From: Lentisphaerota bacterium
GTDB lineage: Bacteria > Verrucomicrobiota > Lentisphaeria > Oligosphaerales > Oligosphaeraceae
Direction: 5' to 3'
DNA: 26,324 nucleotides
NCBI GenBank assembly: GCA_012800625.1
Contig: JAAZIY010000352.1
Span: forward strand, 1 to 26,324
Part shown: in pieces, positions 1,061 to 24,721 of the stretch
Position numbering within the stretch: the stretch's first letter is position 1
Layout of the letters: the number at the start of each line of letters is the position of its first letter
Made by a program: the position numbers and the translations under genes
Notes under the pieces: generated by a model
Database searches by the model: none
The model's input: the letters and a program-made list of their open reading frames with translations, nothing else
Told to the model about the DNA's origin: nothing

Positions 1061-2389
1061 CTAATCGGTTTTCTTTTGCTGCCAAGTATTGGCACTGTTC
1101 AATACTTGTCTTATAGGGACATTATTGGCCAGTGCTATTTTTCTTGCCGCCTCATATTCCGGCACCAGTTCAATGATGCCGCCGGGACGCTGTACCTGCT
1201 TGCAGAGCAGCTTCCCCCAGGCCGTGTCTATCTCTATGCTGCGGCGCTTGAGCAGCAGTCTTTGATTTTGGCTTAGCCGCAGGCCGATGCTGCTGGACTC
1301 GCGCAAAATCAGCTCGCAGAGACCTTTTTGCTGCTCGAGCCGACAGAGCACCCGGACTAGCTGCCCCGGACGGTTTTTCTTTTTTTGAGTGGCGGTAAAG
1401 GATACGTCGAGCGCGGAATGTTCGTACAGCTGCTCCATGAGATAGGCCAGGCTTTCCGGGCTTTGGTCGTCAGTCTCAAACTCGATCACCTGCACCTGGT
1501 CGCAAAGCAGCTCGCCGTCTTGTTGCTCGTCCTCGCTTTCAAACAGAATGGAGCGCACCAGGTTGGGCATGAGAGCAAACTCCTTGCTTCCGTGTCCGTA
1601 GCCACAGCCTAGGATGCGTGCGTTTGGCGGTATTTGGCTGCCTTGGCTCAAAGCTGTAAGAATGGCTGCTCCAGTCGGAGTGGTCAGTTCTGATTCTATG
1701 GGCAGGCGGCTGACTTTTTGGCCCTCGAGCAGCTTGGCTGTGGCTGGAGCAGGCACCGGCATGATGCCGTGCGCGCAACGCACCGTGCCGTAGCCAATCT
1801 TGTGCCCCGGGCAAAACAACTTTTCGACGCCAAGTAAATGCAGGGCGATGCAGACCCCGAAAATATCCACAATGGAGTCTACCGCGCCGACTTCGTGGAA
1901 ATGAATCTCCTCGGGGCTGACACCGTGTATGGCGGCTTCGGCCTCGGCCAGGCGACGAAAGACCTTTTCGGCGTTAATCTTGGCAGGGGCGGGAATTTCA
2001 CTCTTGTGCAAAAGCGCTAGTATCTCTCGAAGACCGCGGTGAGCGTGAGGCGAAGAATGTTCGTGTTCATGAGCGTGTTCGTGTTCATGTTCATGTTCAT
2101 GTTCATGAGCGTGTTCATGCTCGTGTCCATGCTCGTGCCCGTGCTCGTGCTCGTGCTCGTGCTCGTGCCCATGCCCATGCTCCGCCTTTTCGTCTGTATA
2201 TACATTCAGGTATGCGCAGACTATGCCGTGTTTACACAGTTTGCGTTCGAAGCACAAAGAAAAATCCTGCAGTCCGCTGGTTTTAATCAGGCGGACGATT
2301 TCCTTCTGGTCCGCTCCCAGGTCAATCAAGCTGGCCAATATCATGTCACCGGCGGCTCCGGACAAGGGTTCGATACTTAAGAATTTCAT
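1061..2389 (-). CDS. larC: Nickel pincer cofactor biosynthesis protein LarC (Ni insertase) with a His-rich insert
   Basis: N-terminus MKFLSIEPLSGAAGDM; motifs IHFHEVGAVDSIVDI, HGIMPVPAPAT, ELTTPTGAA and KKNRPG. AAGGA SD precedes ATG 2389; the longer ORF-track start overlaps the tRNA. Confidence 0.93.
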   Translation of the reverse strand: MKFLSIEPLSGAAGDMILASLIDLGADQKEIVRLIKTSGLQDFSLCFERKLCKHGIVCAYLNVYTDEKAEHGHGHEHEHEHEHGHEHGHEHEHAHEHEHEHEHEHAHEHEHSSPHAHRGLREILALLHKSEIPAPAKINAEKVFRRLAEAEAAIHGVSPEEIHFHEVGAVDSIVDIFGVCIALHLLGVEKLFCPGHKIGYGTVRCAHGIMPVPAPATAKLLEGQKVSRLPIESELTTPTGAAILTALSQGSQIPPNARILGCGYGHGSKEFALMPNLVRSILFESEDEQQDGELLCDQVQVIEFETDDQSPESLAYLMEQLYEHSALDVSFTATQKKKNRPGQLVRVLCRLEQQKGLCELILRESSSIGLRLSQNQRLLLKRRSIEIDTAWGKLLCKQVQRPGGIIELVPEYEAARKIALANNVPIRQVLNSANTWQQKKTD

Positions 2390-2446
2390 GGTTTCATCCT
2401 TGAGGCAGAAAAAGTCTGCTTTCACTTCGTCTGCTTTTGTACATTT

Positions 2447-2469
2447 TTGTCTGTCTTCGTGTCCCAAAA
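2447..2469 (-). repeat. Dispersed repeat, copy 2, in the larC/tRNA divergent region
   Basis: Minus strand TTTTGGGACACGAAGACAGACAA. Confidence 0.7.
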
Positions 2470-2482
2470 CAGTTTTGCCGAC

Positions 2483-2510
2483 TTGTAAGTTGCGTCTCTT
2501 GTGATAAATT
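2483..2510 (+). promoter_or_regulatory. Putative sigma70-type promoter of tRNA-Ser
   Basis: TTGTAA (2483-2488), 16 bp spacer, TG-n-TAAATT extended -10 (2502-2510), 20 bp upstream of the tRNA. Confidence 0.5.
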
Positions 2511-2530
2511 AGTTTTTTGACCAATTTAGC

Positions 2531-2620
<90 letters not shown>

Positions 2621-2622
2621 TT

Positions 2623-2787
2623 TTATTTTTTATCTTTGCTCACTGCGATGACCAGGGCGGCAACCGTGCCTGGCACCCAGCCTAGCAGGGTAAGAAAGAA
2701 GACGACCATGAAGGCGCCGCAGCCTTGGTCGGCCACTGCCAGTGGCGGAAATATAAAACAGAGTATTATTCTTATAAGCAGTGACAA
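2623..2787 (-). CDS. YqaE/Pmp3 family small membrane protein (54 aa)
   Basis: IRIILCFIFPPLAV...LTLLGWVPGTVAAL matches the family pattern; TTG start at 2787 behind AGGAG. Confidence 0.88.
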   Translation of the reverse strand: MSLLIRIILCFIFPPLAVADQGCGAFMVVFFLTLLGWVPGTVAALVIAVSKDKK

Positions 2788-2858
2788 TGCTACAGCTCCT
2801 GTGTAAAAGCCCTGTGGCTTTGCGGCCAAAAAAAAATTGCTAAGCCGTCCGGCAGGAA

Positions 2859-2890
2859 TTTAGACATCAAGGCCCACTAAGGCAGAGCAA
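2859..2890 (+). repeat. Degenerate dispersed repeat, copy 3, just past the TPM gene stop
   Basis: TTTAGACATCAAGGCCCACTAAGGCAGAGCAA keeps the 10-bp AAG periodicity. Confidence 0.45.
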
Positions 2891-2898
2891 GACAAGTC

Positions 2899-3708
2899 TC
2901 ACCATCTGCCTGAGGCTCCGCCTCCTCCGAAGCGTCCGCCTCTGCCGCCGCCAAAGCTAGTTCCGCCGCCGAAGCCGCGCATTCCTCCGCCGCTAAAGCT
3001 GCCTCCTCCACCGCCGCTGCCGAAGCCTGAGCCCCCGCCTTTATTGAGCAGGGCGAGCAGCAGTATGACTCCCAGGATGCCAAAGAAGAAGAAGATCATG
3101 GGCAGGTCGGTCTCTTGCCCGTCCGTCTCCTGCGGGCGCCTATCTGCATCAAGCTCGCTTGGCGTCTTTGGCTGCTGTCCGCTGACAAAAGCCTGCACCT
3201 GGTGTATGGCGTAGATACTGGCTTCGGCGTAGCGTTCATTTTGCAGATATTGGCGCATGGCTCGGATGATGTCACCGGCTCTGGCGTCATTGATAAAGCC
3301 TTCCCAGCCGTAGCCGATTTCGAGACGCAGCTCCCGTTCTTTGAGGCATATAAGCAGGATGGCTCCGTTATCTTGTTCTTTGTTGCCTGGGCGCCATTTT
3401 TCGGCTAGTTTCAGGCTGTATTCCTCGATGCTCCATCCTTTGAGTTCCGGCAGTGTGAGCAGGCCCATTTGTCCGCCAGTGGCTTGTTCCAGCGCTTCAA
3501 TCTCCTGCTCGAGGCGCATTTTTTCCTCTTCTTGGAAAAGGCCGGCCAGGTCTACTACGCGGGCACTGAACTCTGGCAGCTGGGTGAGGGAGTCAGAGCT
3601 GCCTCTTTTTTTAGGGCAGCGGTCCAGTGCGAACAGAGCCAGTGCCAGGATGCTGATAAGCAGCACCAGGCTGAGATTGATGCGACGTTGATGATTCTTT
3701 TGCGCCAT
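2899..3708 (-). CDS. TPM-domain (YgcG-like) membrane protein with Gly-rich C-terminal tail
   Basis: RVVDLAG, SIEEYS..LAEKW.PG....DNGAILL, LRLEIGYGWEG, a TM helix, and a tail ending GRFGGGGASGRW; directly downstream of lemA. Confidence 0.92.
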   Translation of the reverse strand: MAQKNHQRRINLSLVLLISILALALFALDRCPKKRGSSDSLTQLPEFSARVVDLAGLFQEEEKMRLEQEIEALEQATGGQMGLLTLPELKGWSIEEYSLKLAEKWRPGNKEQDNGAILLICLKERELRLEIGYGWEGFINDARAGDIIRAMRQYLQNERYAEASIYAIHQVQAFVSGQQPKTPSELDADRRPQETDGQETDLPMIFFFFGILGVILLLALLNKGGGSGFGSGGGGGSFSGGGMRGFGGGTSFGGGRGGRFGGGGASGRW

Positions 3709-3723
3709 GAGCTTGATGTCGTC

Positions 3724-4299
3724 TTAGAAGCTGACTTCTGGCGCCTGTTCCAGCGCTGCTCTGCCAGCGGGCGGTTCGTAGTATTCGGCGGGGCTAAATC
3801 CCAGGCCGGGGGCAAACAGGGAGCCGGGGAACATGCGTATGGCGGCATTGAAATTCTTCACTGCGCCGTTATAGCGTCCGCGGGCGACCGCGATGCGGTT
3901 TTCAGTGCCGGCCAGCTCATCCTGCAGTCTGACGAAGCTGCTGTCGGCCTTCAGCTGCGGATAGTTCTCGGCGATGGCGAGCAGGCGGCTCAGGGCGGAA
4001 CTGACCGCAGTCTCTGCTCCGGCCTTTTCGGCTGGTGTACTTGCTCCTATGAGTTTGCTGCGAGCATCGGCGACGGCTGTGAAAATCTCGCTTTCATGCG
4101 CCGCATAGCCTTTGACCGTGTTGACCAGGTTGGGGATCAGATCGGAGCGCCGCTGTAGCTGCGTGTCTATCTCGCTCCATTGCAAGTTGACCGCTTCGTC
4201 TTGGTTAATCAGGCTGTTGCGGCTGGAGATTACCCAGCTGGCCGCCAAAAGAAAAAGGGCTAAAAGCGCTAAAACTATGATGATGATGGTTTTTTTCAT
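3724..4299 (-). CDS. lemA: LemA family protein
   Basis: N-terminal TM helix; QLQRRSDLIPNLVNTVKGYAAHE, AENYPQLKA and ENRIAVARGRYN; GGAG SD. Confidence 0.95.
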   Translation of the reverse strand: MKKTIIIIVLALLALFLLAASWVISSRNSLINQDEAVNLQWSEIDTQLQRRSDLIPNLVNTVKGYAAHESEIFTAVADARSKLIGASTPAEKAGAETAVSSALSRLLAIAENYPQLKADSSFVRLQDELAGTENRIAVARGRYNGAVKNFNAAIRMFPGSLFAPGLGFSPAEYYEPPAGRAALEQAPEVSF

Positions 4300-4374: not shown

Positions 4375-5082
4375 CTATTGCCTGGCCAGTTGATTTATGA
4401 GTTGCTGGGCGAAGAATGCGGCTTTATAGCTATGTTGCAAGCTTGCTGGTGGTGGCACTTTAAGGCTTGCCAAGAGGTCTAGTCCCAGGAGGGCATTGCC
4501 GGTTTCGTTGACATGCATGGGATCAAGCATAAGCATGCTATACAGCTCAGGTTGTTGTTCCTGCAAAAGCTGCCAGCGTTGGTAATGGTCTTGCAGAGAC
4601 GAGGCGGTTTGCTTTGCCACCTCGCGGATGCTTTGCATATTAGCCAGCATCTTATCCGCCATTTCCTGTTCGAGTTGGTCCAGCATACAGGCGTAGTAGG
4701 TCTGAAAAATGACTTCAGCGCCCATATCGGCAATGCGCTTCTGCAAGTCAAGCAGGTTTTTTTTGAATTGCGCCTTGCTGATGTTTTTCAAGGTGCTGCT
4801 GTCATTGCCGCCTATGGTTATAATTACCAGGTCAGGCTTATATGCGTCTAGGTCTCTCTGATAGCGTGCAAGCAGTCCGCTGCTGGTATCTCCGCCAATG
4901 CCGCAGTTGATGAAGTTGCCGCAGCCGCCGCCATAATGCTGTTTAAAGGCAAGTTCGACAAAATCAAACCAGGTCATGCCTGGCAAACGGCGCTGTGTGT
5001 TGGAGGAGCCGAAGGCTTCCACCACTATATGTTGTCCTCGAGCCAGCTTGTGGAAAATATGCAGGCCGCTAAAGTCTTCCAT
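4375..5082 (-). CDS. SGNH/GDSL hydrolase with an intact catalytic set
   Basis: Block I FGSSNT, block II NCGIGGDT, block III IGGND, block V DPMHVN; ATG 5082 behind AAGGGG. Confidence 0.88.
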   Translation of the reverse strand: MEDFSGLHIFHKLARGQHIVVEAFGSSNTQRRLPGMTWFDFVELAFKQHYGGGCGNFINCGIGGDTSSGLLARYQRDLDAYKPDLVIITIGGNDSSTLKNISKAQFKKNLLDLQKRIADMGAEVIFQTYYACMLDQLEQEMADKMLANMQSIREVAKQTASSLQDHYQRWQLLQEQQPELYSMLMLDPMHVNETGNALLGLDLLASLKVPPPASLQHSYKAAFFAQQLINQLARQ

Positions 5083-5401
5083 GTATAAAACCCCTTGCAG
5101 TGACAAAACAACGGTCAAGTATGCTAATATAAAACCAAACTATACTTTTGTTGAGCAAGCTTGTAAAATAAAGGCGCAAGCGATATGGCAAGGGTAATGT
5201 ACGGATTTGTAAGCCTTAGGTTTTATGGAAAAAAAAGCTGGCAGAAATTGGACGCTAAGGCGCAGCAAGTTGACTTTGCTAAGGAAATACTGGTTTTCTG
5301 TGAATTTCTCGGGAGTTCTTCCCCGACAAGATTTTTGAACGAAGCCCTAGGCAAGTTACTAAGGCTTTTTGCATATATATCATCATTCCAGGAGTTCAGC
5401 C

Positions 5402-6613
5402 ATGTCTCGCAGACTGCTTTCCACCGATTATGCATCCTTGCAGGCCGCCGTAGATGCGGCTGCTGAGAATGACTTGGTCGTGGTTCCCGCCGGTCATCAC
5501 CAGTGTGCTTCGCTACGCTTAAAGAGTAATTTAACTCTGCGTTTGGAAGCTGGGGCTGTGTTGCATGCCCCCAGAGAAATTGAAGGCTATAACAAGAGTG
5601 AGATGCTGCAGCGGCAGACCAGCTTAGACCATTATTTCTTTGGCGGCTTTGGCCTCGAAAACCTGTGCATTGAAGGTGAAGGCGTGCTAGCCTGTAATGG
5701 CGATGCCTTCTGGAGTGATTATGACGGCAAAGACTCGCCGCCAGCCAGCGAGCTGAGGAGCAGGGTGTATCTGTCCATGCCCTCCAGGCCTAGCGCCATG
5801 CTTTTTGTCAATTGCCGGAATCTGCGTCTGCGCGATTTCAGCATAGTCAATGCCGCCGCCTATACGGTCTGGTGCATAGGCTGTCAGAATCTGCGTTTGG
5901 AGCGCTTGCGCATAAAAAACCACCGGCTGGGTCCTAACACCGACGGTCTGGACATAGACTGCTGCCAGGATGTCTGGATAGACTCTTGCCACATCGACGC
6001 CGGCGACGATTGCATCGCTCTGAAAAGCGACATAGCCATACTGGGGCGTGAGCTGCCCTGTGAAAGGGTACATATCAGCAATTGCACGCTTACTTCAACC
6101 TGCTGTGCCCTGCGCTTGGGCTATGAGGGCGACGGCGATATCCGTGACATTATAGTGAATGACTGCATTATACACGACAGCAACAAGGGCTTTGACTTGA
6201 TCTCGGTGTTGCCAGAAATTCAGCGTTTCAATATATACAAGGGGGCCAGAATAGAAAATGTGGTCTTCAAGGGCGCAGTTATGCGCAATGTCAGACAGGC
6301 TATTGCCGTGTGGAGTGGAGCCGACTTGACCGAGGATGAAGAACGTTATCAGGGATATATCAGAAGGCTGAGCTTTGCCGACTTGCAGATAGAAGCGGTG
6401 GACGCCTCTTTTATCGGCGGCATGGCGGTCTCAGAGATCATGCTGAATAATATACGTATGCAGGTTAGGCGAGATGCGCAGCGCTATAAAGGGCAAACGC
6501 TCGTGCGCAAGCCTAATGTCTGGGGTACGGGATATCTGCCTTATGCCTTGAATTTCCACCAGGTGGCCAACCCCATCCTCAATAATGTGAATGTCAGCAT
6601 GGAGGAGTATTGA
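5402..6613 (+). CDS. Glycoside hydrolase family 28-like / pectin-lyase-fold protein
   Basis: VVVPAG, LRLKSNLTLRLEAGAVL, NTDGLD, GDDCIALKS and beta-helix repeats; ATG 5402 behind AGGAG; no signal peptide seen. Confidence 0.85.
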   Translation: MSRRLLSTDYASLQAAVDAAAENDLVVVPAGHHQCASLRLKSNLTLRLEAGAVLHAPREIEGYNKSEMLQRQTSLDHYFFGGFGLENLCIEGEGVLACNGDAFWSDYDGKDSPPASELRSRVYLSMPSRPSAMLFVNCRNLRLRDFSIVNAAAYTVWCIGCQNLRLERLRIKNHRLGPNTDGLDIDCCQDVWIDSCHIDAGDDCIALKSDIAILGRELPCERVHISNCTLTSTCCALRLGYEGDGDIRDIIVNDCIIHDSNKGFDLISVLPEIQRFNIYKGARIENVVFKGAVMRNVRQAIAVWSGADLTEDEERYQGYIRRLSFADLQIEAVDASFIGGMAVSEIMLNNIRMQVRRDAQRYKGQTLVRKPNVWGTGYLPYALNFHQVANPILNNVNVSMEEY

Positions 6614-10303: not shown

Positions 10304-12214
10304 TCAGCCCATGTTTTTCAGCTGCAGCCCGTCGAGGAACTCGGCGTTGCTCTTAGTGGTTTTGAGCTTGTTGACGATCATTTCCATAGCGTCGTTGACG
10401 TTGGTTCCACTGATGGCTTTGCGCAGTGCCCAGATTCTTTCCAGCTCATGTGCGGGCACCAGCAGCTCTTCCTTGCGCGTGCCGCTCTTTTCCATGTTGA
10501 TGGCTGGATAGATGCGTTTGTCGCTGAGGAAGCGGTCCAGGTGCAGTTCCATGTTTCCGGTGCCCTTGAACTCTTCGAAGATAACCTCGTCCATGCGGCT
10601 GCCGGTATCTATCAAGGCGGTGGCCAATATGGTCAGGCTGCCGCCGTTTTCGATGTTTCTGGCTGCGCCGAAGAATCGTTTTGGCTTATGCAGCGCATTG
10701 GCGTCGACGCCGCCGGAGAGTATGCGTCCCGAGTGCGGCTCGATGGTGTTGTAGGCTCTTGCCAGGCGGGTGATGCTGTCCAGGAGGATAACCACGTGTC
10801 TGCCGTATTCGACCAGTCGCTTGGCCTTTTCGATGACCATTTCGGCCACCTCGACATGGCGGTCTGGCGGCTCGTCAAAAGTGGAGCTGACGATTTCGGC
10901 CTCGACATTGCGCTGCATGTCAGTGACCTCTTCGGGGCGTTCGTCAATGAGCAGCACGATAAGTGTGACGTCGTCATTGTTCCTGGTGATGCTGTTGGCG
11001 ATTTTTTGCAGGATGACGGTTTTGCCGGTGCGCGGTGCGGCCACGATTAGCCCGCGCTGGCCGCGGCCCACCGGCGTAATCAGGTCAATGACGCGGCATG
11101 ATATTTCGTTTCTTTCGCGTTCGAGCACCAGTCTCCGCGTGGGGTAGAAGGGGGTCAGGTTTTCAAAGGGGACCAGGTCGCGTTTGCGCTCAGGCGGCTC
11201 GGCGTTAATGGTCTCCAGCTTAGTCATGGCGAAGAAACGCTCTTTTTCCCTGGGGCGGCGTATCTGCCCTACTATGGTGTCGCCGGTGCGCAGCAGGAAG
11301 CGCCTCACTTGAGTTGGACTCAGGTAGATGTCCTCGGGGCATTCCTGATAGCTGAAGTCGGCACTGCGCAAAAAGCCAAAGCCCTCCTGGGTTACTTCGA
11401 GCACGCCGCTGCCGTAGGCCAGGCCGCCGGACTCGGCGTCGTTGCGCTCGAAAATCTGCTCAACCAGTTCTCGTTTTTCCAGGGACTCGGGCTTTTCGAT
11501 GTCTAGTGCGGCGGCGATTTCGAGCAGCTCGGGCAGCTGCAGGCTGCGCAAGTGCTCGATGTCCAGGGCTTCGCGCATGGCTGGCTCGGCAAAGCTGTAG
11601 TCCGGCCCGTCTTGGGTCAAGGCGTCATAGTCCTCGAAGTTGTAGTAGGCCTGCTGTTTGCCGCGAGCGGAGCGTCCGCCGCGCTTGGCCTGGCGCTGCG
11701 CCTCGCGCAGCGGGCGCGGCAAGGCACGTGGAGCGCTCTCTTGGCGGCTTGGCTTGGGGCGCGGCGGTGTTTTTTCCTTGGCAGGCGGGCTGGGTTTGAT
11801 GACGGCGCGGGGCGCCTGCGGCTGTCCGTCGCTAAGGCTGACCAGGCCGGGGGTTCCGGTTAGCGGCAATATGCCTTTGCCCAGCTTGAAACCCAGCTTG
11901 CTGACTCCCTCCGCGGGAACATCGCCGTTTTCAGTGCTCGCATCCCGCAGGCCCTTGTCATTGGACTGTGGCTCTGCCGCGTGAGCCTCACTGAGGGTCA
12001 GTGCAGAATCTTTTTCTTTTTCAGCTTCCATATCCGACTCCTCGGCTTTGTCGAGTTTTTTTTTGCCTGCCGCCTTACTATCCTCGGCCTGGCTCGGTTC
12101 TTCGCTGGCAGCGGTTTTTCTGGGACGTCCGCGAGGTTTGGGCTTGTTTTCCGGCAAAGCCTCTTCAGGAGGCGTCTGCTCGGCCTTGATTGTTAGTTCA
12201 GGGTCTGTGCTCAT
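10304..12214 (-). CDS. rho: Transcription termination factor Rho with an approximately 215-aa N-terminal extension
   Basis: [58 protein letters not shown] and FKGTGNMEL. Confidence 0.98.
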
Positions 12215-13391: not shown

Positions 13392-15434
13392 TTGGGCGAT
13401 CATTTTGACAATTTCGGCAGTCTGGGCGACTTGTTTCCGACCTCTGAGCTTAAGTGCCGTATTCGCGGCTGTGACAACCTGGTGCAGGTCAGCGGCGAGC
13501 AGGCCATGTATAATGCCGCGCGGGGACAGTCCGGCAGGCCCGACAAGATGTGTCAGAGCTGCTACGAGCGTTTTTTGCAGCTTGAGGACCGGGAGCAGCC
13601 CTGCTCGAAGCCCGGCTGCTCGGGCAGCTGGGTGTGGAACCGCTTTCAGCAGCTCGAGGCTTTGGCATACGGCAACTATGATAATCCGCCCAAGGGCCTC
13701 TGCGAGGCCTGCCGGCAAGAAGTCAGGGAAGGCAGCGATGTGGAGCAGAAATGCCGTATGCGGGGCTGCAAAAACACCTGGGTGTGGAGCAGCAGGATGC
13801 AATTGCAAAGCGGACTGGACAAGCCGCCCAAACGGCTCTGCGAGGAATGCTTCCAGACATTGAAAACACTGCATGACCAAGAGCTGCCCTGCCGCATCAA
13901 ATCCTGTCAAAATAGCTTTGTCTGGAATAAATACCAGCAGCTCGAACATCTGCTTTCGGGTAAAAAACTCGATGCGCCGCCCCCCCGGATGTGTGAGCCT
14001 TGCTTCCAGAAGTTTCGCTTGTTGAACAATAGCGTGGAGCCTTGCAAGATCAGCGGCTGTTCGGGTACTTGGGTCTACAACGCCTACGAGCAACTCGAGC
14101 GGCAGCTGGCCTGCAAAGAGGGGGAAAGCCCCGCAAAGCCCAGCCGCATGTGCAATCAATGTTTCGACTTCTTCAATAATTGCAAAGACATAGAGCTGAA
14201 CTGCAAAAACCGGCACTGTGAGCATAAATGGCTGTGGACGCGGGGCATGCAGCTGGGATACCGCCTGAGAAATCCGGAGGGCAGGCCGCCGGCCAGAATG
14301 TGCAAACAGTGTGTGGAAAAGCTGAAGTCGCTCTCCACCCTGCAGGAACCTTGCTCACAGCAGGGCTGCAACGGCAGCTGGAACTATGAGCCGGAGGAGC
14401 AGCTGCTCGATCAGCTGGCCGGCAAGAGGCCGGCAGCCAAAGCCTGCAAGACATGCCAGGACTTCCTGGCCAGCCATGAGAGCGCGGAGATAAGCTGCAG
14501 CCAGTGCGGCACTGTGTTCCTGTGGAGCAGCCATGAGCAACTGCTGCATAGCCTGGGGGTCTTTGACAAACCACAGCTTTGCGCCAACTGCGTAGGTGCA
14601 AAAATGCGGCAAATAACCCCAAAAGAGGCGCCTAAGCCTGCTCCAGAGGAGCGTTTCAGCATACGCATACCCCAGCGCGGCGCCTGGCAAAACAGCGCCG
14701 TCATTCGGGATTGGCCGCCACATATGAACATAAGCGCCATACGCGAGCTGGAGGAAGCCAGCCTGCGGGTGCTCTGTTTTGGAGACGAGCTTACCTTTTG
14801 CTCGGCCGAGAGCGAAAAAGGCTGGCCGGCCATGCTCAAAAAACGCCTGCAAAAGCGTTATGAGCCGGAGTTTGGCCGGCTTGGCCTCATCAATGTCGGC
14901 ATGCCAGGCTCCAATACGGCTTTGTCCATTCGGCGTTTCGAAAGAGATGTGCTCCCCTTTGAACCGCATTTGCTCATCTTTTCATTTGCCTTTAGTGACA
15001 CGTTTATGCTTGACCGGCATGAGCGTGCCCAAGCCGCCGAGGCCCTGGCCAGGTTGAGTGAGGATTTCGAGCAATTGCTGCGTCAGTTTGAAAAACTGCC
15101 GCCGCTCTGCCGCCTGCTGTGCTGGCTGCCTAACCCGATATTCCCGCAAAAGGAGCAAATTATCGATGCGGACTGGCGTGAACGCGGCAACCTGGACCTG
15201 CCGCTGCTGGAGTTCTACGAGAGCCTGCTGCGGCAAATGAGGCAAAAATGCCAGAGCGCCGGCCTGAATTGCCTGGAAGGACGCACGCTCTTTGAAATAG
15301 GCGGGCGACAAACCGCCCTGAAATGGATGCAGAACTGGTACCTGCCTAACGAAATCGGCCAAAATAGCTTCGCTGGATGGTTCGAGAATATCATACAAAG
15401 AGAAAACCTGCTGCAACCCAGAGAAGAGAACTGA
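13392..15434 (+). CDS. Protein with eight tandem zinc-ribbon-like repeats and a degenerate SGNH/GDSL-fold C-terminal domain
   Basis: TTG start behind AAGGAG; residues 22-400 carry 8 repeats of Cx(2/4)C...W.W...QL...P...CxxC; C-terminal VLCFGDEL, INVGMPG, SFAFSD and LPNEIG. Confidence 0.9.
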   Translation: MGDHFDNFGSLGDLFPTSELKCRIRGCDNLVQVSGEQAMYNAARGQSGRPDKMCQSCYERFLQLEDREQPCSKPGCSGSWVWNRFQQLEALAYGNYDNPPKGLCEACRQEVREGSDVEQKCRMRGCKNTWVWSSRMQLQSGLDKPPKRLCEECFQTLKTLHDQELPCRIKSCQNSFVWNKYQQLEHLLSGKKLDAPPPRMCEPCFQKFRLLNNSVEPCKISGCSGTWVYNAYEQLERQLACKEGESPAKPSRMCNQCFDFFNNCKDIELNCKNRHCEHKWLWTRGMQLGYRLRNPEGRPPARMCKQCVEKLKSLSTLQEPCSQQGCNGSWNYEPEEQLLDQLAGKRPAAKACKTCQDFLASHESAEISCSQCGTVFLWSSHEQLLHSLGVFDKPQLCANCVGAKMRQITPKEAPKPAPEERFSIRIPQRGAWQNSAVIRDWPPHMNISAIRELEEASLRVLCFGDELTFCSAESEKGWPAMLKKRLQKRYEPEFGRLGLINVGMPGSNTALSIRRFERDVLPFEPHLLIFSFAFSDTFMLDRHERAQAAEALARLSEDFEQLLRQFEKLPPLCRLLCWLPNPIFPQKEQIIDADWRERGNLDLPLLEFYESLLRQMRQKCQSAGLNCLEGRTLFEIGGRQTALKWMQNWYLPNEIGQNSFAGWFENIIQRENLLQPREEN

Positions 15435-15658: not shown

Positions 15659-15728
15659 AGGCTAATTACAGTTTTTTACGCTTGTTTAGGTTTTTTTGCT
15701 TTTATCATTTGAAGGAGACATTATTATT

Positions 15729-16400
15729 ATGCTTGGCAAGTTAATTAAGCCTCTGCTCGCGGTTTTGCTCGTCAGCCTACTTTTCAGCGCTTGTACGAAG
15801 AAGCCGAAGATTGACCTAAGCGGCCTGCGCGAGTCTCCAGCCGGCTCGGGTGCCCTGCGTGTCTCTACCGGCGCAGATCAGTTTGGTGGTCAAGGCTTTG
15901 AGATTCTTGACGGTTCCGAGCCGCTTTTCAGCGAGTTCCAGACCGGCGACTCCGGCGGTGCTCTTGCCGGCGGCGCGCTTGGCGCCGAAGGCTGGGACGA
16001 CTTGGCGAAGCCATTGGCCACTGGCGCCGATGGAGACGGTTTTTTGCAGGACTCGAGAGCTTGGAACGATGTGGTTTATTTTGCCTATGACCGCTCTGAG
16101 GTCCTGCCCTCGGAGCGCTACAAGCTCGATGCTCTGGCACAAAACCTGTTGGCCGCTCCGGAGCAGGGGCTGGTCATCGAAGGGCATTGCGATGAGCGCG
16201 GCAGCGACGAGTACAACCGGGCACTGTCCGAGCGCCGCGCCTTGTCGGTGCGCGAATATCTCGGCAATCTCGGCGTTTCCATTGAGCGCATGCAGACCAT
16301 CAGCTATGGTGAGGACCGTCCGGTGGTTCCTGATGCCCGCAGCGAGTCTGAGCACCAGAAGAACCGGCGCGCACAGTTTTTGCTGGGCAAGCGCAAATGA
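15729..16400 (+). CDS. pal: OmpA-family peptidoglycan-associated lipoprotein (Pal-like)
   Basis: Lipobox LFSAC; VYFAYD, IEGHCDERGSDEYNRALSERRA, SYGEDRP and NRRA; ATG 15729 behind GAAGGAG. Confidence 0.88.
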   Translation: MLGKLIKPLLAVLLVSLLFSACTKKPKIDLSGLRESPAGSGALRVSTGADQFGGQGFEILDGSEPLFSEFQTGDSGGALAGGALGAEGWDDLAKPLATGADGDGFLQDSRAWNDVVYFAYDRSEVLPSERYKLDALAQNLLAAPEQGLVIEGHCDERGSDEYNRALSERRALSVREYLGNLGVSIERMQTISYGEDRPVVPDARSESEHQKNRRAQFLLGKRK

Positions 16401-16879
16401 CCCTGCTTGTCGAGGTCTGTGCCGCAGTTATTTTAGACCAGTCTGGCCTGTTGTTGGCCACCCGCGCGCCGGGCAAAGACCTGAGCGGGCAGTGGGAGCT
16501 GCCCGGCGGCAAACTGCATAGCCAAGAGACGCCTGCTGAATGTATCAGCCGAGAACTGCACGAGGAACTCAGGCTGACTGTTGAGCAGGCGTCTTTGTTT
16601 TTAAGCATGGTGCATCATTATCCTCACAAGTCCATAAGACTGCACTTCCTGCATTGCCGCTTGAGCAGACAAGACCCAATGCCGCAGGAAGGCCAAAAAA
16701 CCGCACGCTTCAACAGTACAGAGCTGCCCTGGCAGCATATGGCCGAGGCCGACCGCCTAGCCCTGGAATTCCTGCGCTCGGCAAAATGGCGCATCAATAC
16801 GGGGCAGGGCACTGAGCTGCCCGAAATAGTCGATTTGCCCCTGGCTGAACGCATACACCACTGGCTGAAGCTGTCCTGA
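16397..16879 (+). CDS. NUDIX hydrolase, MutT-like
   Basis: WELPGGK..SQETPAECISRELHEEL Nudix box; ATGA overlap with the pal stop. Confidence 0.9.
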   Translation: MTLLVEVCAAVILDQSGLLLATRAPGKDLSGQWELPGGKLHSQETPAECISRELHEELRLTVEQASLFLSMVHHYPHKSIRLHFLHCRLSRQDPMPQEGQKTARFNSTELPWQHMAEADRLALEFLRSAKWRINTGQGTELPEIVDLPLAERIHHWLKLS

Positions 16880-16887
16880 TAAAAAAC

Positions 16888-17823
16888 ATGCCTTCGTGTC
16901 CCCTTCCCCCCCGTTCTATTGTTATGTCTACTGAATCTAAAACCGCCTCCTGTGGTTTAGCTCACCCCGAGTGGTACAAGGTGGCCTTTAAGGGCGGCAA
17001 AGAACGCCTTGCCATGCGCAGCTTGTTGCGAGACAGCAAGCTGCATAGCGTGTGCGAAAGCGCGCGCTGTCCCAATCTCTGCGATTGCTGGAAACGACAG
17101 ACCGCCACCTTTATGATTCTGGGAGAACAGTGCACGCGCAATTGCCGCTTTTGCGCGGTGAATCATGGCAAGCCGGCGGCGCCGGATCCCGATGAGCCGC
17201 AACGCATCGCCGAGGCGGTCGCGACTCTGAAGCTGCGCTATGTCGTCATTACCTGCGTCACCCGGGACGATTTGCCCGACGGTGGCGCCGCCATGATGGC
17301 GGCCTGCATCAGGGCGGTCAGACAAAAAAGCCCGGACTGCAAAGTGGAGGTCCTTTGTTCCGACTATGCCGGCAGCAAAACGGCCTTACAGCTGGTTTTG
17401 CAGGAAAAACCCCAGGTTTTTGCTCATAATCTTGAGACTGTGCGCCGCCTGAGCGCCAGCATACGTCCGCAGGCCGACTACGAGCGCAGCCTGCAAGTGC
17501 TGGCCAACGCGGCGCAATGGGCAAGGCATTCGGAGGGCTTGCCGAAAATTAAGTCCGGACTGATGCTGGGGCTGGGCGAGAGCGAGCAAGAGCTGCGCCA
17601 GTGCTTGGCTGATCTGCGCGACAGCGGCGTGCAGATACTTACACTGGGACAGTACCTGCAGCCTAGCCATGAACAGGTGCCGGTGCAGAGACATGTCTCA
17701 CCAGAGGAGTTTGAAGGCTGGAAAAACTGCGCCGAAAAGGAATTCGGCTTCCATATGGCGGTGGCCGGACCACTAATCCGCAGCTCCTATCTTGCCGAAG
17801 AGGCCTATCTGGCCGTGAAATAA
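16888..17823 (+). CDS. lipA: Lipoyl synthase
   Basis: CESARCPNLCDC (auxiliary cluster), CTRNCRFC (radical SAM), VTRDDLPDGGA, HNLETV, LTLGQYLQPS and RSSY. Confidence 0.97.
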   Translation: MPSCPLPPRSIVMSTESKTASCGLAHPEWYKVAFKGGKERLAMRSLLRDSKLHSVCESARCPNLCDCWKRQTATFMILGEQCTRNCRFCAVNHGKPAAPDPDEPQRIAEAVATLKLRYVVITCVTRDDLPDGGAAMMAACIRAVRQKSPDCKVEVLCSDYAGSKTALQLVLQEKPQVFAHNLETVRRLSASIRPQADYERSLQVLANAAQWARHSEGLPKIKSGLMLGLGESEQELRQCLADLRDSGVQILTLGQYLQPSHEQVPVQRHVSPEEFEGWKNCAEKEFGFHMAVAGPLIRSSYLAEEAYLAVK

Positions 17824-19276: not shown

Positions 19277-19394
19277 TTATCGGGCTTGGCTATTTCGTTT
19301 CGATTTTCCCTTGCAGGGTGACTTTATACATACAGTGAATATACTATGCCATTTGCCTTGAATGTTTTGCCCCAGCCCCATTTCAGGAGTAGAG

Positions 19395-21167
19395 ATGTCG
19401 CGTGAGCTATTTGAGAGGTTTCAACCAGCTTTGTCAGAAGAGGCCTTGTTACAAAACAATTTTTTTGAGCTTTATCCTCATGATGGCGGCGGCAGCTTCG
19501 TACATCGCGAGCTGCTCGGCAGCGTAGATGATCTTCAAATGGCCGATTTTATCCTCCAAGGCGGCGCTTTGGAGCAGTTCGGCAAGCTGCCCAAACTCGA
19601 CTATCATAAATTTGCGCGCTGGCTTCACATCGAGAAGAGCTGCTGGCTGACGCGCATGTATTTTATCGTGCCGCTAGCCAAAAAGTACCGTCTCGAGGGC
19701 AACGAGGAAATAGCCATCCTGCTAAAAGAGCTGCTGCTGGATTTTTATGCCAGTATGCCCGCTCCTCAAGGCGTACAGGCCAATGTGGACTACTGGCGCG
19801 AGATACACCGGCGTCGGGACGAGGACTATAATATGCGCTCCTTTGAGGAATATAGCCGGGATGAACGCGAAATTGATTATAGCTGGTATGACTTCCAACC
19901 GGCCAGCCGACTTATACATAGCCTGCATGCCTTGTACCTGCTGCGCAACTCGCCTTCTATTAATGAGGAGGAATGGCGGCAACTGGCCGATTTTTGCCGG
20001 CTGCACGGCGAAACCCTCTATATACAGGAAAAACACTGCAATGAACTAAAGCGCGGCAACCACCAGGCGCTGAGAGCAACCGCATTGCTCTATGCCGCCG
20101 TGTTCAGCCAGAATCAGGACTGGGCCAGGCTCGGGCTGGAAATCAGCCGCTGGCATCTGAAAAATGATTATTTCGCCGATGGCAGTCTGCGCGAGATCAG
20201 CCCTTCATACCATTGTTTCGAGACCTGGATTTGCCGCGACGCCGCCATCCTGGCGGAGCGTCTGGGCGGCCCTTTTGAGGAGGCGGAGTTGGAGGCTCTG
20301 ATGAAAGCGCTGCAAGCCTGCCGCATCCTCGAAACCCCCAATGGCTATACAGTGGTGCTGAATGACGGCTACCCGGTCAATAATACGGCTTTTATAGACA
20401 GCTTCGCCGGGCTTTTCGAACAGCTGCCAGCGGCGGAGTCGGGCACGCAGCTGCTGGCGGATGCGCAGCTCGCGGTCTGGCGCCAGGGCGATTCATACCT
20501 GCTTTTGGACGCATCCCCCTTTGTCGGACGTTTTTCACATTACCATGCCGGCAAGAATGCGCTCACGCTCTGGGTGAAGGGCGAACCTTTTTTGGTAGAC
20601 AGCGCCTGCTGCAACTACGATGACCCGAAATTCGCGCAGTGGTACAAGCTCACTGAGGCGCATTCCAGTTTGCTTTTGAATGGCAAGCGCGACGCTGAGT
20701 TGGCCGGCACTTATGATTGGCAACAGACGCCTGAGCCTAAACTGGGCGGCTGGGAGAACAACGGCGAGCTGGGGCGACAGCAGATCAGCGCCGAGCTGCG
20801 CTCACCTTGCTGGCCGGGAGCCTGCTGGCAGAGAACCCTGCAGGTGCCTGCCTCGCAAGACGAGCTGGAGATCAACCTGATTGACCGCGTCAGCTGCGGC
20901 GATTGCGAAGCCGAGCTGGTCTTTGTTTTACATCCGCAGGTGCAGACGCAAATGCTGGATGAGGGTATAATACTGAGCAGCGGCAAAGTCAAGCTCATGA
21001 TGCACTGGCTCTGCCTGGAACTGGACTGCCCGGCAAAACCACAGCCCAGCCTGGTTGAAGGCATGGTCTATGAGGACTTCGAGCATCGTCAGTCTAAGCG
21101 CCTTATCCTGAAATTCAACACCGGAGGCAGGCACAGCATCAGAACTAACTTTAAACTAATCGAGTAA
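19395..21167 (+). CDS. Heparinase II/III family polysaccharide lyase-like protein
   Basis: GNHQ, DGSLREISPSYH, SHYHAGKNALTL...FLVDS and AHSSL; ATG 19395 behind AGGAG; no signal peptide seen. Confidence 0.82.
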   Translation: MSRELFERFQPALSEEALLQNNFFELYPHDGGGSFVHRELLGSVDDLQMADFILQGGALEQFGKLPKLDYHKFARWLHIEKSCWLTRMYFIVPLAKKYRLEGNEEIAILLKELLLDFYASMPAPQGVQANVDYWREIHRRRDEDYNMRSFEEYSRDEREIDYSWYDFQPASRLIHSLHALYLLRNSPSINEEEWRQLADFCRLHGETLYIQEKHCNELKRGNHQALRATALLYAAVFSQNQDWARLGLEISRWHLKNDYFADGSLREISPSYHCFETWICRDAAILAERLGGPFEEAELEALMKALQACRILETPNGYTVVLNDGYPVNNTAFIDSFAGLFEQLPAAESGTQLLADAQLAVWRQGDSYLLLDASPFVGRFSHYHAGKNALTLWVKGEPFLVDSACCNYDDPKFAQWYKLTEAHSSLLLNGKRDAELAGTYDWQQTPEPKLGGWENNGELGRQQISAELRSPCWPGACWQRTLQVPASQDELEINLIDRVSCGDCEAELVFVLHPQVQTQMLDEGIILSSGKVKLMMHWLCLELDCPAKPQPSLVEGMVYEDFEHRQSKRLILKFNTGGRHSIRTNFKLIE

Positions 21168-21284: not shown

Positions 21285-23078
21285 CTAATATTTTTGCAAG
21301 GCGGCCTGCATGAGTTTTTTGAGCAGCGGGGCGGCCACTCGCCCGCCGCCGCCGGCATTTTCCACCAGGGCCAGTCCAATAAATCTCGGCTTTTCGGCGG
21401 GGCTGGCGGCTACACACCAGGCCTGCGGCAGGCGAGCGCCGCCCACTTCGGCGGTGCCGGTTTTACCCAGCATAGTATGTCCCGGGATTTGCAATGCCCG
21501 CCCGGTTCCCTCCGGGGCATAGACGCAGGCCTGCATGCCGGCAATGACTTGGGCCTGAGCCTCGGGTTGCCAGTTGCAGGACTGCAGCAGCTGGCTAGGC
21601 TCGTCCAGGAGCAGCTTCAGCTGCATTTGCTGTCCGGTCAGCAGCATGGCGTATGAGAGTAGCATTTGTAGCGGAGTGACCAGCCATTTTCCCTGGCCTA
21701 TGCCGGCATAGGCCGAGTCGGCCTCGGTCCAGCGTGGCGACTGTTTTTGTGCTTTCAGCCAATGTGGCGAGTAGGCTATGCCCTCGGCTTCCTGCCGGTA
21801 TAAGATCGTGTTCAGTCTTCTGCCGAAGGCAAACAGCTCGGCGAGTTCGTCCCAGCCTTGCGGCCCCATTTTCTGGCCCAGGCGGCAGAAGAAGACATTG
21901 CAGGATTTTGCCAGGGCTTCGACTAGTGCCAGGTCGCCATGCCCCTGGCGTCTATGACAAGCTATGCTGCGTCCGCCGCGCAGTTCCAGGTAGCCGGGAC
22001 AGTGATATGGTTCGTCGCTTTGCAGCAGCCCTTTTTCCAGGGCGTAGAGCGCCATGAATGGCTTGATGGTGGAGCCTGGCGCATACAATCCGGATACGGC
22101 TCGGTTAAATTGCGCTCCCTGTCTGCTCTCCGGCTTATTTGCGTTCAGATCAAAGCCCGGGCAGCTAGCCAGCACGAGGAGCTCGCCGTTTTCGGCGTCA
22201 AGCAGCAGCATGGCGCCTTTGTAATCGTATTCAGCATACATTTCTTCGGCCAGGCTTTGCAGCTCTATGTCTATGGTCAAGAGTATATCATTGCCGTTGA
22301 CGGCTTGTTTGGATTCCAACACGTTATTTCGAAAAGAGAGCACATCGGTTTGCAGCAGTTCACTGCCGCCGGCTCCGCGCAGCTCCGGGTTCAAGAGATA
22401 TTCCAGTCCGCTTTTGCCCACCGGTTCTTTAAAGTTGGCATTCCAGTATTCTTTCAAGTCTGGTGTCTCAGGTTCGCCCAGGCGGGTATAGCCGCGCAAT
22501 TGCGAGGCTAGCCCGGGGTAGGCATACTGTCTTTTCCACGATAGCATGAGCTCGCTGCCGGGAAAGTCAAGCCTGCGGGCGTTCCAGCGCGCCATGGTGT
22601 GCGCGTCCAAGTCCTGCCAGAGCGGGATAGGCATGGGCGTTCGTTTGTTTAGATGCGCGGCGAGCTGCGCGCGGTCTGGCATGAAACGATAGTAGTCTGC
22701 GCCCAGATACAGTGCCAATTCCGAGATGGCACTGCTGATCTTTTCCAGCGTAATGCTTTTGGTGTCCCGCGGGTCGCGGAGCAGGTCTGGCCTGATCACC
22801 AGGCTGTACATGGGCACCGTATAATTAAGCGGTTTACCGTATCTGTCGCAGATCATGCCGCGTTTGGCCGGCACGTAGAGTTTGCGGGTTTGCTGGCGTT
22901 GGCTCTGCTGAGTGAAGCTTTCGCTTTGAAAAATCTGCAGGCTGGCCAGGCAGGCAAGCAACAACAAGCTTAGGGCGGCGAAAAAAAACAAAAGCGCATA
23001 GCTGTTTTTTTGGCGCCGCAGCAGGGTTTTGTCCTGCCTGCTCTCATTTGCAGGGAATGAGCGGTTTTCTATATGCAT
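21285..23078 (-). CDS. mrdA: Class B penicillin-binding protein (PBP2/MrdA-like)
   Basis: N-terminal TM helix, PAKRGMICDR, GKSGLE, catalytic STIK, SCN and KTGT; downstream of mreCD. Confidence 0.88.
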   Translation of the reverse strand: MHIENRSFPANESRQDKTLLRRQKNSYALLFFFAALSLLLLACLASLQIFQSESFTQQSQRQQTRKLYVPAKRGMICDRYGKPLNYTVPMYSLVIRPDLLRDPRDTKSITLEKISSAISELALYLGADYYRFMPDRAQLAAHLNKRTPMPIPLWQDLDAHTMARWNARRLDFPGSELMLSWKRQYAYPGLASQLRGYTRLGEPETPDLKEYWNANFKEPVGKSGLEYLLNPELRGAGGSELLQTDVLSFRNNVLESKQAVNGNDILLTIDIELQSLAEEMYAEYDYKGAMLLLDAENGELLVLASCPGFDLNANKPESRQGAQFNRAVSGLYAPGSTIKPFMALYALEKGLLQSDEPYHCPGYLELRGGRSIACHRRQGHGDLALVEALAKSCNVFFCRLGQKMGPQGWDELAELFAFGRRLNTILYRQEAEGIAYSPHWLKAQKQSPRWTEADSAYAGIGQGKWLVTPLQMLLSYAMLLTGQQMQLKLLLDEPSQLLQSCNWQPEAQAQVIAGMQACVYAPEGTGRALQIPGHTMLGKTGTAEVGGARLPQAWCVAASPAEKPRFIGLALVENAGGGGRVAAPLLKKLMQAALQKY

Positions 23079-23090
23079 GGCAAACTGTGT

Positions 23091-23164
23091 TTTTGGACAC
23101 TAAGACACACTAAGACACACTAAGACACACTAAGACACACTAAGACACACAAAGACACACTAAG
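23091..23164 (+). repeat. Dispersed repeat, copy 10: head plus 6x (T/A)AAGACACAC, between mreD and mrdA
   Basis: TTTTGGACAC, 5x TAAGACACAC, AAAGACACAC, TAAG. Confidence 0.97.
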
Positions 23165-23774
23165 TCCCGCGAGGTTTTTTCGGTTTTTGCAGCAGGTCGA
23201 GCACCGCGAAAAGCAATGGTCCGGCGGCCAGGGCATTCAGAGCAAAAGCCAGGAGCAAATATCGCGGCAGCAGTGCCAAACGCTCTATTAGGCTTAAAGC
23301 GCCGGCAAAAAAGATTAGCTGCAGTGAGAGCAGCGTCGATGTGGCTAGGGCGCAAGCAAAGATGGCCTGCATATATTGCTGCTTCACAGCGCTCAACGCC
23401 GGCTTCGCCAAGGAGAGAATAAAAACGCAGGCCCCAAGCAGAAATACATTGCTGCCCAAGGCCTGAAACTGCAAAGTGTCCAGCATCAACCCGGCTGGCA
23501 GCGCCAGAATCAAAACCCAAGGCAGGCTTAGCCGTAGACTCAGATAGCTGAAGAAGAGCAGGGCGGGATACAGCGGAAGCCCGGCGTAGTAACGCGGCAA
23601 AATCGCCTGCAAGGCAGCAGTATAGGGTAAAAGTAAAACAACAAGGCAAAACGTGACTATATAATGCCAGAGACCGCGCCGCGAAAAGAAGAACTCCCGG
23701 ATAAGCTCAGAGTTGTAGACTATGTGAATCTCGAGCAGGGAGCGCTGGCTTTTGTCGTTGACGGAAATGCGCAT
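23160..23774 (-). CDS. mreD: Rod shape-determining protein MreD-like (start uncertain)
   Basis: Several hydrophobic segments, LPAGLMLDTL..ALGSNVF; lies between mreC and the PBP2 gene. Confidence 0.72.
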   Translation of the reverse strand: MRISVNDKSQRSLLEIHIVYNSELIREFFFSRRGLWHYIVTFCLVVLLLPYTAALQAILPRYYAGLPLYPALLFFSYLSLRLSLPWVLILALPAGLMLDTLQFQALGSNVFLLGACVFILSLAKPALSAVKQQYMQAIFACALATSTLLSLQLIFFAGALSLIERLALLPRYLLLAFALNALAAGPLLFAVLDLLQKPKKPRGT

Positions 23775-23796
23775 TGCAGAAAAGATAATGGGACGG

Positions 23797-23835
23797 TTTT
23801 GGACACGAAGTTACATAAGCGGTCAAAGGACACAA
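23797..23835 (+). repeat. Dispersed repeat, copy 11, between mreC and mreD
   Basis: TTTTGGACACGAAG head, then degenerate units (...CAAAGGACACAA). Confidence 0.65.
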
Positions 23836-23869
23836 TATTTCCAGCGCAGTTGCGGCTGTTCGGTTTTTG

Positions 23870-24721
23870 TCACGGTATGGCGACCAGGACATAACGCAGA
23901 TTCTCGAGGCCAGCTGCCGGATGCACCTGGTAGCGTTTGGCTCCGGCATTGTCGGTTTCGCTGGCGCTGACGCGGCCTATGGGTATGTCATCAAGCAGGT
24001 TTTCGCTGCCCAACGAGCTAGTTAGCACCCAGTCGCCTTCATTAACGCTATCAAAATCGTCGCCGCTGAGGGAGTCCAGCAGCATATCTTGCGGCGGCAA
24101 GAAGAGGTCGGCGCTGCTGTTTGCTGCTCTTGCCGGCCCGTGTATAAGGGCGGCAATGTTTTTTTTTGCCAACTTGCAGGAGAGCGATAGCCTGGGGCTG
24201 CCCACAAGCGTCACCTGTGACTCCTTGGCCGTGGTTTGCGCGACGATGCCGACCAGGCCTTCCGGGCTGAGCACGGCATGTCCCGGCTTAAGTCCGTCGC
24301 TGTGTCCGCGGTCTATCAGGATACTGCCATAATAATCGCTAAGCGGATAGCGTCTTAACACGCGGCAAACGATAAGGGTGTGCGTTTTCGGGCTGCGCTG
24401 CAGGCGCAGCAGGGTTTGCAAGGTGATATTGTCCTGGCGCAATCGCTCGGAGTCGTTTTGGGCGGCATGCAGCTCGATGCGGGTTTGGGCCAGGTCTTGC
24501 AGCAGCGCGTCGCGCTCTTCCAGACTGAAGTTTTCCGGCAGCCCGCCCAGAGCCTCGCGACTGACCCTGGCGCCTATCTCGGCCAGGGTTTTGGCAGGGC
24601 TGCTGGCCAGAGCCAGCAATTCGCGCAGGCGCTGCTGCCTGCCCTCGGGCAAAAAGAAGAGCAGCGCAAGCAGAAGCAGAAAAGCCAGAAAGTAAAAGAT
24701 TTTACTGCTTAGCTTTGACAT
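23870..24721 (-). CDS. mreC: Rod shape-determining protein MreC
   Basis: N-terminal TM helix, coiled coil (LRQDNITLQTLL), ILIDRGHSDGLKPGHAVLSPEGLVGIV, VLTSSLG and IPIGRV. Confidence 0.9.
   Translation of the reverse strand: MSKLSSKIFYFLAFLLLLALLFFLPEGRQQRLRELLALASSPAKTLAEIGARVSREALGGLPENFSLEERDALLQDLAQTRIELHAAQNDSERLRQDNITLQTLLRLQRSPKTHTLIVCRVLRRYPLSDYYGSILIDRGHSDGLKPGHAVLSPEGLVGIVAQTTAKESQVTLVGSPRLSLSCKLAKKNIAALIHGPARAANSSADLFLPPQDMLLDSLSGDDFDSVNEGDWVLTSSLGSENLLDDIPIGRVSASETDNAGAKRYQVHPAAGLENLRYVLVAIP

Follow-up and report, generated by a model that had tools for sequence, protein, structure and literature searches.

An SGNH-fold domain that has probably lost catalysis, at the C terminus of a zinc-ribbon protein from an order of Lentisphaeria

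Is a domain that has kept the fold of an SGNH/GDSL esterase and lost the residues of its active site still an enzyme? This question is raised by a 680-codon gene located on contig JAAZIY010000352.1 of a Lentisphaerota bacterium (assembly GCA_012800625.1); the whole stretch of DNA analysed, 26,324 nucleotides of the forward strand, is referred to here as the window. The gene encodes a protein with an N-terminal array of zinc modules and a C-terminal SGNH-like unit, and the 3' third of the gene, in which the stretch 14760-15434 had been flagged in a first-pass annotation, corresponds to the C-terminal domain. That annotation regarded the domain as a pseudoenzyme in which the catalytic blocks read GDE, AFSD and NWYLPN, and proposed that its fusion to the zinc array forms a new type of one-component sensor. 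The codons and positions of all three motifs were confirmed to the base. Our analysis indicates, with high but not complete confidence, that 14760-15434 encodes a catalytically dead, conserved and non-enzymatic SGNH-fold module, whereas the proposal of a sensor is not borne out. The gene and the four blocks, all on the forward strand, are as follows.

13392-15434 (+), whole gene (P0001), 680 aa, comprising eight zinc modules, a hinge and an SGNH-like unit; defined by the open reading frame and its translation.
14781-14789 (+), block I, GGA GAC GAG, encoding G464-D465-E466; Glu (GAG, 14787-14789) replaces the Ser nucleophile of GDS.
14892-14918 (+), block II, encoding N501-V-G503-M-P-G506-S-N-T; the oxyanion Gly506 is retained.
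14988-14999 (+), block III, GCC TTT AGT GAC, encoding A533-F-S535-D536; the Gly and the oxyanion Asn of GxND are lost, and the Asp is retained.
15333-15350 (+), block V, AAC TGG TAC CTG CCT AAC, encoding N648-W649-Y-L651-P-N653; the acid Asp and the base His are lost.

By fold-level superfamily criteria applied to structure and sequence together, the C-terminal domain as modelled is a genuine SGNH fold, matching the three-layer α/β/α architecture, with its five-stranded parallel sheet, on which solved SGNH proteins superpose. The AlphaFold2 (AF2) model of the unit (residues 418-680) has a predicted local distance difference test score (pLDDT) of 94.5 and a predicted template modelling score (pTM) of 0.93. 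In Foldseek, the top matches of the SGNH unit are all GDSL/SGNH enzymes (E of about 1e-8, 8e-9; probability 1.00), and the VIA fold search aligned 198 residues to 4q9a with a Z score of 20.3 and a root-mean-square deviation of 3.0 Å, and gave a Z score of 19.3 to 1yzf. When residues 440-680 were scanned alone, PF13472 was matched with 41.3 bits (gathering cut-off, 32.9); this family was not reported in the scan of the whole 680-aa protein. The prediction of a two-copy complex of the SGNH unit scored 0.00, which is uninformative either way as to a homodimer.

The equivalence of the altered blocks with those of active enzymes was obtained in several ways. In the alignment of the family profile with the solved GDSL enzymes 7DDY, 1YZF and 4RSH, the GDe of the family aligns with GDS and its AfaD aligns with GxND. 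The same equivalences for blocks I-III were obtained by hhalign against a second SGNH gene in the window (P0002), and when the product of this gene was added to the family alignment, N648 paired with its Asp and L651 (codon CTG at 15342-15344) with its His. In block V, where DxxHPN is expected, the family-specific Trp649 also stands in place of the usual Gly. At the catalytic columns of the 117 nearest non-family relatives, which were taken from a family-profile scan of 1.84 billion representative proteins, Ser is present in 117/117, Asn in 115/117, His in 116/117 and Asp in 96/117. Sequencing error can be excluded as the source of the losses, as the first-pass annotation had argued, because no Ser codon can be reached from the Glu codon GAG with fewer than two base changes and because an orthologue with 80% identity has identical residues.

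The second SGNH gene, which had been put forward as an internal control at 4375-5082, was used as such: it retains GSS, GGD, GGND and DPMHVN, matches PF13472 with 61.8 bits and probably encodes a carbohydrate esterase. It extends over 4375-5118 on the reverse strand, the earlier start at 5082 being an internal ATG 12 codons after a TTG, and it is arranged head to head with a GH28 polygalacturonase-like gene (5369-6613, forward strand).

The losses are not confined to the window protein. About 100 full-length relatives sharing 26-80% identity were found by a word-indexed search; where names were given, their sources are nearly all metagenome-assembled genomes (MAGs) of Lentisphaeria or Victivallales, with one from Candidatus Pacebacteria. 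In an alignment of 96 orthologues, from which all family counts in this report derive, the former catalytic positions are occupied as follows.

Position 466 (nucleophile): E in 44, D in 41, S in 6 and other residues in 5 of 96 (E or D in 85/96).
Position 506 (block II Gly): G in 53/96.
Position 535 (oxyanion Asn): A in 55, G in 19, S in 14 and N in 1 of 96.
Position 648 (acid Asp): D in 36-37 of 96.
Position 651 (base His): H in 4/96; otherwise R, L, N, Q or M.

None of the 96 orthologues holds the full catalytic set, and none combines Ser466 with the canonical His651, a combination whose retention would have pointed to decay in a single lineage. The closest orthologue (80% identity) has the same block residues as the window protein. 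With the trait columns masked and the root placed on the most divergent pair, the tree gives an acidic residue as the ancestral state of position 466, replaced by non-acidic residues in six events, all at tips. Changes number 41 at position 651 and 39 at position 506, both of which are thus essentially unconstrained. The earlier expectation that Glu and Leu would both be conserved therefore holds for position 466, where it is the charge that is kept, and fails for Leu651; similarly, the block II Gly, described as kept, is present in the window protein and in little more than half of the family. The tree and the family-wide residue states place the loss of the catalytic residues before the family, so that it does not represent decay in the window lineage: Ser, Asn and the Asp-His pair were lost before the family radiated, and the losses are family-wide and ancestral.

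A His is found at position 652, one residue past the canonical His, in 51/96 orthologues, whereas the clade of the window protein has Pro there (P652, 15345-15347) and no His in the loop. This His652 may be a relic of the ancestor, since P0131, the nearest relative with a full catalytic set, has His-His at this site.

Two further structural variants were observed among the orthologues. Those at L007 301-2766 and L008 301-2784 (821 and 827 aa) carry an Ala/Pro/Glu-rich tail of about 156 residues after the SGNH unit, and the window protein has none. In six genomes of one genus of the same family (G073, G079, G100, G109, G196 and G205), the match to the window protein is split, one part covering residues 2-250 and the other residues 249-656. 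Five of these genomes have both parts within a single, longer open frame (765-1143 aa), which points to a central insertion in the zinc array of this genus; in G205, the parts fall on two contigs.

The boundary between the family and its active relatives is sharp. Among the 1.84 billion representatives scanned, all family members spanning the blocks (E <1e-36) are devoid of Ser and Asn, and two of them have the canonical His; the next full-length matches, starting at about 1e-28, are canonical. P0131 (E 8e-42, 160 bits) is the sole exception. This 238-aa stand-alone metagenomic protein, which has no signal peptide, is the best non-family match to the family profile and keeps Ser, Gly, Asn, Asp and His (GDS, block III Asn-Asp and D-x-x-H). 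It resembles the family in the motifs around blocks II-V, including Trp649 and the His at 652, and differs from the window protein in having the full catalytic set and in being neither fused to nor encoded beside a zinc array. P0131 is the best available model of the active ancestor. The domain descends from ordinary small SGNH esterases. The best 150 representatives include no active SGNH domain that carries a zinc array or has one encoded beside it. Matches of 570-630 aa with canonical residues were considered as array fusions and rejected; they are secreted fusions of the BNR/sialidase type and have no Cys arrays. The genes neighbouring P0131 and those neighbouring P0105, a protein consisting of the array only, are unrelated.

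The altered domain continues to be maintained. Over the SGNH part, the window gene and its 80% orthologue differ at proportions of 0.134 of non-synonymous sites (pN) and 0.694 of synonymous sites (pS), the latter approaching saturation. Because the synonymous sites of the window gene are saturated against every available orthologue, the ratio of non-synonymous to synonymous substitution rates (dN/dS) was estimated from an unsaturated pair of orthologues, L007 and L008. For the SGNH part, where 28 differences are synonymous and 18 are non-synonymous, the ratio is 0.18, in agreement with the value below 1 anticipated in the first-pass annotation; the array and the N-terminal extension of the SGNH unit give 0.10 and 0.09, respectively. 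As judged from these substitutions, the dead SGNH domain is under purifying selection, somewhat less tight than that on the array.

The residues under constraint fall into two sets. G464, D465, N501, G503, R515, D519, P525, D536, N653 and G656 are fold determinants common to the active relatives, and W478, P522, F523, S531, W578, P585, W645, M646, W649 and W663 are conserved specifically in the family. W649, which takes the place of the Gly in the usual D-G-x-H, occurs in 95% of the family and in 1% of proteins outside it. P427, G430 and W432 in the extension are invariant in the family and are found in only about one-third of active relatives. The loops of the old active site are among the most conserved parts of the domain. 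In one clade (P0042, P0027, P0033, P0032 and P0037; support 100), position 466 is T, S, C, S and G and position 535 is D, E, E, E and E, respectively, and an acidic residue at 535 occurs in no other family member among the 96 aligned. The acidic charge thus looks to have been relocated within the old active site in this clade, a shift from 466 to 535 that is expected if a carboxylate in that corner of the site is selected. Together with the many E/D interchanges at 466, this move suggests that the carboxylate itself appears to be the selected feature.

The remaining parts of the protein, again all on the forward strand, are listed below.

13455-14591 (+), zinc array, eight four-Cys zinc-ribbon-like modules, C22 to C400 (residues 22-400).
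14616-14636 (+), hinge (residues 409-415), pLDDT <50 in the full-length model; joins the array to the SGNH-like unit.
14637-14756 (+), N-terminal extension of the SGNH unit (residues 416-455, 40 residues), containing the invariant P427, G430 and W432.
14757-15416 (+), SGNH-fold core (residues 456-675), defined by PF13472, the AF2 model and the fold matches.

Translation starts at a TTG codon with AAGGAG 7 nt upstream, and the N terminus of the 680-aa protein is kept in the orthologues. The Cys columns of the array are invariant or nearly so, and each module is modelled as a hairpin followed by two helices with pLDDT >90; the array gives a weak match to PF13451. The array is basic (net charge of +6 in the window protein; family median, +9), and the SGNH core is acidic (net charge of −3 and isoelectric point of 5.6 in the window protein; family median net charge, −4.5). 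The extension reaches pLDDT 90-98 if folded together with the SGNH domain, and residues 416-675 are one folded unit consisting of the SGNH core (456-675) and the 40-residue extension. At full length, the AF2 model averages a pLDDT of 91, with a pTM of 0.52, and contains no confident docking of the array on the SGNH domain; in the predictions, the zinc and SGNH modules are individually confident and their mutual arrangement is not. Scans of the window protein against Pfam and NCBIfam yielded weak zinc-ribbon matches and the SGNH domain only, and the protein is a cytoplasmic zinc-finger protein with a C-terminal SGNH unit.

Within one Lentisphaeria order, the gene belongs to the single-copy core. 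Of 301 sampled genomes of the phylum, it was found in 13/13 from the order to which the window belongs and in 0/288 others, and there is one full-length match in the window's own assembly, a fragmented MAG of 510 contigs. Downstream lies a block (15696-17823, forward strand) encoding an OmpA-family lipoprotein, a NUDIX protein and lipoyl synthase (LipA), which is kept at orthologous loci (L004 and L005) down to about 47% identity and is lost at the loci of P0045 and P0093. The upstream side varies, with rho-coaE in the window and in L003 and other genes elsewhere. No gene partner is conserved across the orthologous loci. Arrays without an SGNH unit occur elsewhere, as in P0105 (413 aa) and P0108-P0113; in the latter, a poly-Arg/Lys run comes after a long insert of acidic, low-complexity sequence.

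As separate observations on the surroundings, the Rho protein encoded at 10304-12214 (reverse strand) has a charged low-complexity N-terminal extension of about 220 residues before its Rho_N, RNA-binding and ATPase domains. Other genes in the window, at 1061-4299 (reverse strand), 19362-21167 (forward strand) and 21285-24721 (reverse strand), encode a LarC-like nickel insertion protein, a TPM-domain and LemA pair, a heparinase II/III-like lyase, a PBP2-like transpeptidase and MreC. A scan for promoters and terminators returned counts at the level expected by chance.

According to the reading that we favour, the domain would no longer hydrolyse esters and would serve as a binding or scaffolding module. 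A carboxylate would be under selection at the former nucleophile position and, in one clade, at the former Asn position; it would most likely lie in or beside the old oxyanion hole, where it could stabilize the empty site or supply a fixed negative charge. The aromatic residues W478, F523, W578, W645, W649 and W663 may remodel the old cleft into a docking surface, whose partner could be a protein or a small ligand, the latter probably cationic or polar. The zinc array, of which stand-alone versions exist in other bacteria, would carry the primary activity of the protein. Among the possible non-catalytic roles, docking of a partner or scaffold and binding of a small ligand appear roughly equal in probability, and a purely structural role only slightly less probable.

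Several points weigh against this reading. The absence of the canonical residues would be compatible with another chemistry, and D465, E466 and D536 could in principle bind metal. A His lies one residue past the canonical position in about half of the family, though not in the clade of the window protein. The placement of the carboxylate and the aromatics relative to the old cleft is taken from the SGNH block layout and is to that extent provisional, and the relocation of the charge is a single evolutionary event. Finally, the gene neighbourhood gives no clue to a partner or ligand.

The most direct challenge is that the domain is still an enzyme of a non-canonical kind, in which D465, E/D466 and D536 would bind a divalent metal or would act as general base or nucleophile, helped by His652 where it is present. 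The persistence of an acidic residue at 466 through many E/D exchanges does indicate a functionally constrained rather than a drifting position, and D465 and D536 are conserved at about 97%, with H652 in 51/96. However, D465 and D536 are equally conserved in the canonical relatives (98% each), which marks them as determinants of the fold rather than new features; throughout the clade of the window protein, position 652 is Pro and the loop contains no His; at the oxyanion-hole positions 506 and 535, residues vary freely or are simply kept small; and no solved SGNH-fold enzyme has anything but Ser in block I (PMC10792757). We consider this explanation quite unlikely. The sensor of the first-pass annotation, in which the dead pocket would detect a small molecule such as an acyl group or an acetylated sugar and the zinc array would be the output of a new one-component system, fares only a little better and is also unlikely. 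The strongly conserved loops of the old active site, with their added family-specific aromatics, would suit such a pocket, and the basic array (median, +9) may be compatible with nucleic-acid binding. Against this, no known family of DNA-binding or signalling outputs was detected in Pfam or NCBIfam, and the array occurs without an SGNH unit (P0105 and P0108-P0113) and is thus not dependent on such an input. Being part of the universal single-copy core of one order, the gene is unlike typical accessory sensors; its neighbours differ between lineages, which suggests no regulated target; and a fixed carboxylate in the pocket would be a poor fit to acyl or acetyl groups.

Of similarly low probability is the more speculative idea that the carboxylate, ringed by the Trp and Phe residues of the family, forms a receptor pocket in which a cationic metabolite or basic peptide would bind and thereby control the flexibly tethered array, or alternatively that it supports a new chemistry on the SGNH fold. 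The dead domain might also bind RNA itself, as does the OSK domain of the insect protein Oskar, the established precedent of a catalytically dead SGNH domain (PMC5785220, PMC2848206). The block pattern is that found in OSK and both domains are fused to a second binding module, but the window domain is acidic, a comparison that concerns net charge only, and the family profile found no Oskar chain among all PDB sequences at E up to 10, whereas esterases were matched at 5e-11; RNA binding by the domain is accordingly rated as very unlikely. Recent decay, a pseudogene or an assembly error in the MAG can be given almost no weight. Nothing beyond the fragmentation of the source assembly speaks for any of them, whereas the frame is open across 680 codons, the same residues are present in the 80% and 60% orthologues from independent samples, dN/dS is well under 1, and the loss is common to the whole family. 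The pseudoenzyme claim of the first-pass annotation is thus upheld, and in a stronger form: the domain has an SGNH fold without nucleophile, oxyanion Asn, acid and base, its losses are ancestral and family-wide, and it is under purifying selection.

For this family, the public labels 'SGNH/GDSL hydrolase family protein' and 'lysophospholipase L1-like esterase' are almost certainly wrong as to function. The family provides a clean, independent bacterial case of an SGNH esterase turned non-enzyme, and, as part of the single-copy core of an entire order of Lentisphaeria from gut and environmental habitats, it constitutes a defined target for structural and genetic work. If the receptor-pocket idea were true, a previously unknown bacterial signalling or adaptor architecture would have arisen from a dead esterase. 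What the present analysis adds is the ancestry and relocation of the acidic residue, the sharpness of the boundary to canonical relatives, P0131 as the nearest relative with a full set, the selection estimates and the parallel with OSK.

Among known systems, the canonical bacterial SGNH/GDSL esterases, such as Escherichia coli TesA/TAP (1IVN), AlAXEase (7DDY) and the proteins from E. faecalis (1YZF) and P. merdae (4Q9A), share the same fold (Z scores of 19-20), and homology to them is recognizable both by profile (E 5e-11 to 7DDY) and through PF13472 (Lipase_GDSL_2). They differ in being free or secreted enzymes, whereas the window unit ends a cytoplasmic zinc-finger protein. Compared with them, the family lacks Ser, Asn and His, the window protein additionally lacks the acid Asp, and the block V Gly is replaced by Trp. 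Weak similarity over blocks I-III is also seen to PF25182 (NonGDSL, 'Non-GDSL lipase-like family'), of which precomputed matches exist in some orthologues; membership of the window protein was rejected at 11.4-14 bits against a gathering cut-off of 80 bits.

The closest precedent is OSK; among SGNH-like proteins of solved structure, it alone has no Ser in block I (PMC10792757). In its structure 5A4A, block I is G-D-D, the block II Gly is kept, block III is G-S-V-D, and Asp and His are absent (PMC10792757, Table 2). In both proteins, the block I Ser has thus given way to an acidic residue (GDD in OSK, GDE in the window protein and GD[ED] in the family), the block II Gly and the block III Asp are kept, and Asn, the acid Asp and His are lost; both also combine an SGNH fold in a non-enzymatic role with a second binding domain in the same chain (PMC5785220, PMC2848206). 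They differ in that OSK is eukaryotic (insects), with a basic, RNA-binding surface, whereas the window domain is acidic, and in the partner domain, which is LOTUS in Oskar and a zinc-ribbon array here. OSK was not among the best 50 matches of Foldseek or the VIA search, which is not evidence of absence; since the profile search gave no OSK match at E up to 10, the resemblance is best explained as convergent, through independent loss. By analogy, the repeated replacement of Ser by an acidic residue, in this family and in OSK, suggests a general route by which the SGNH fold may be stabilized or repurposed once catalysis has been lost.

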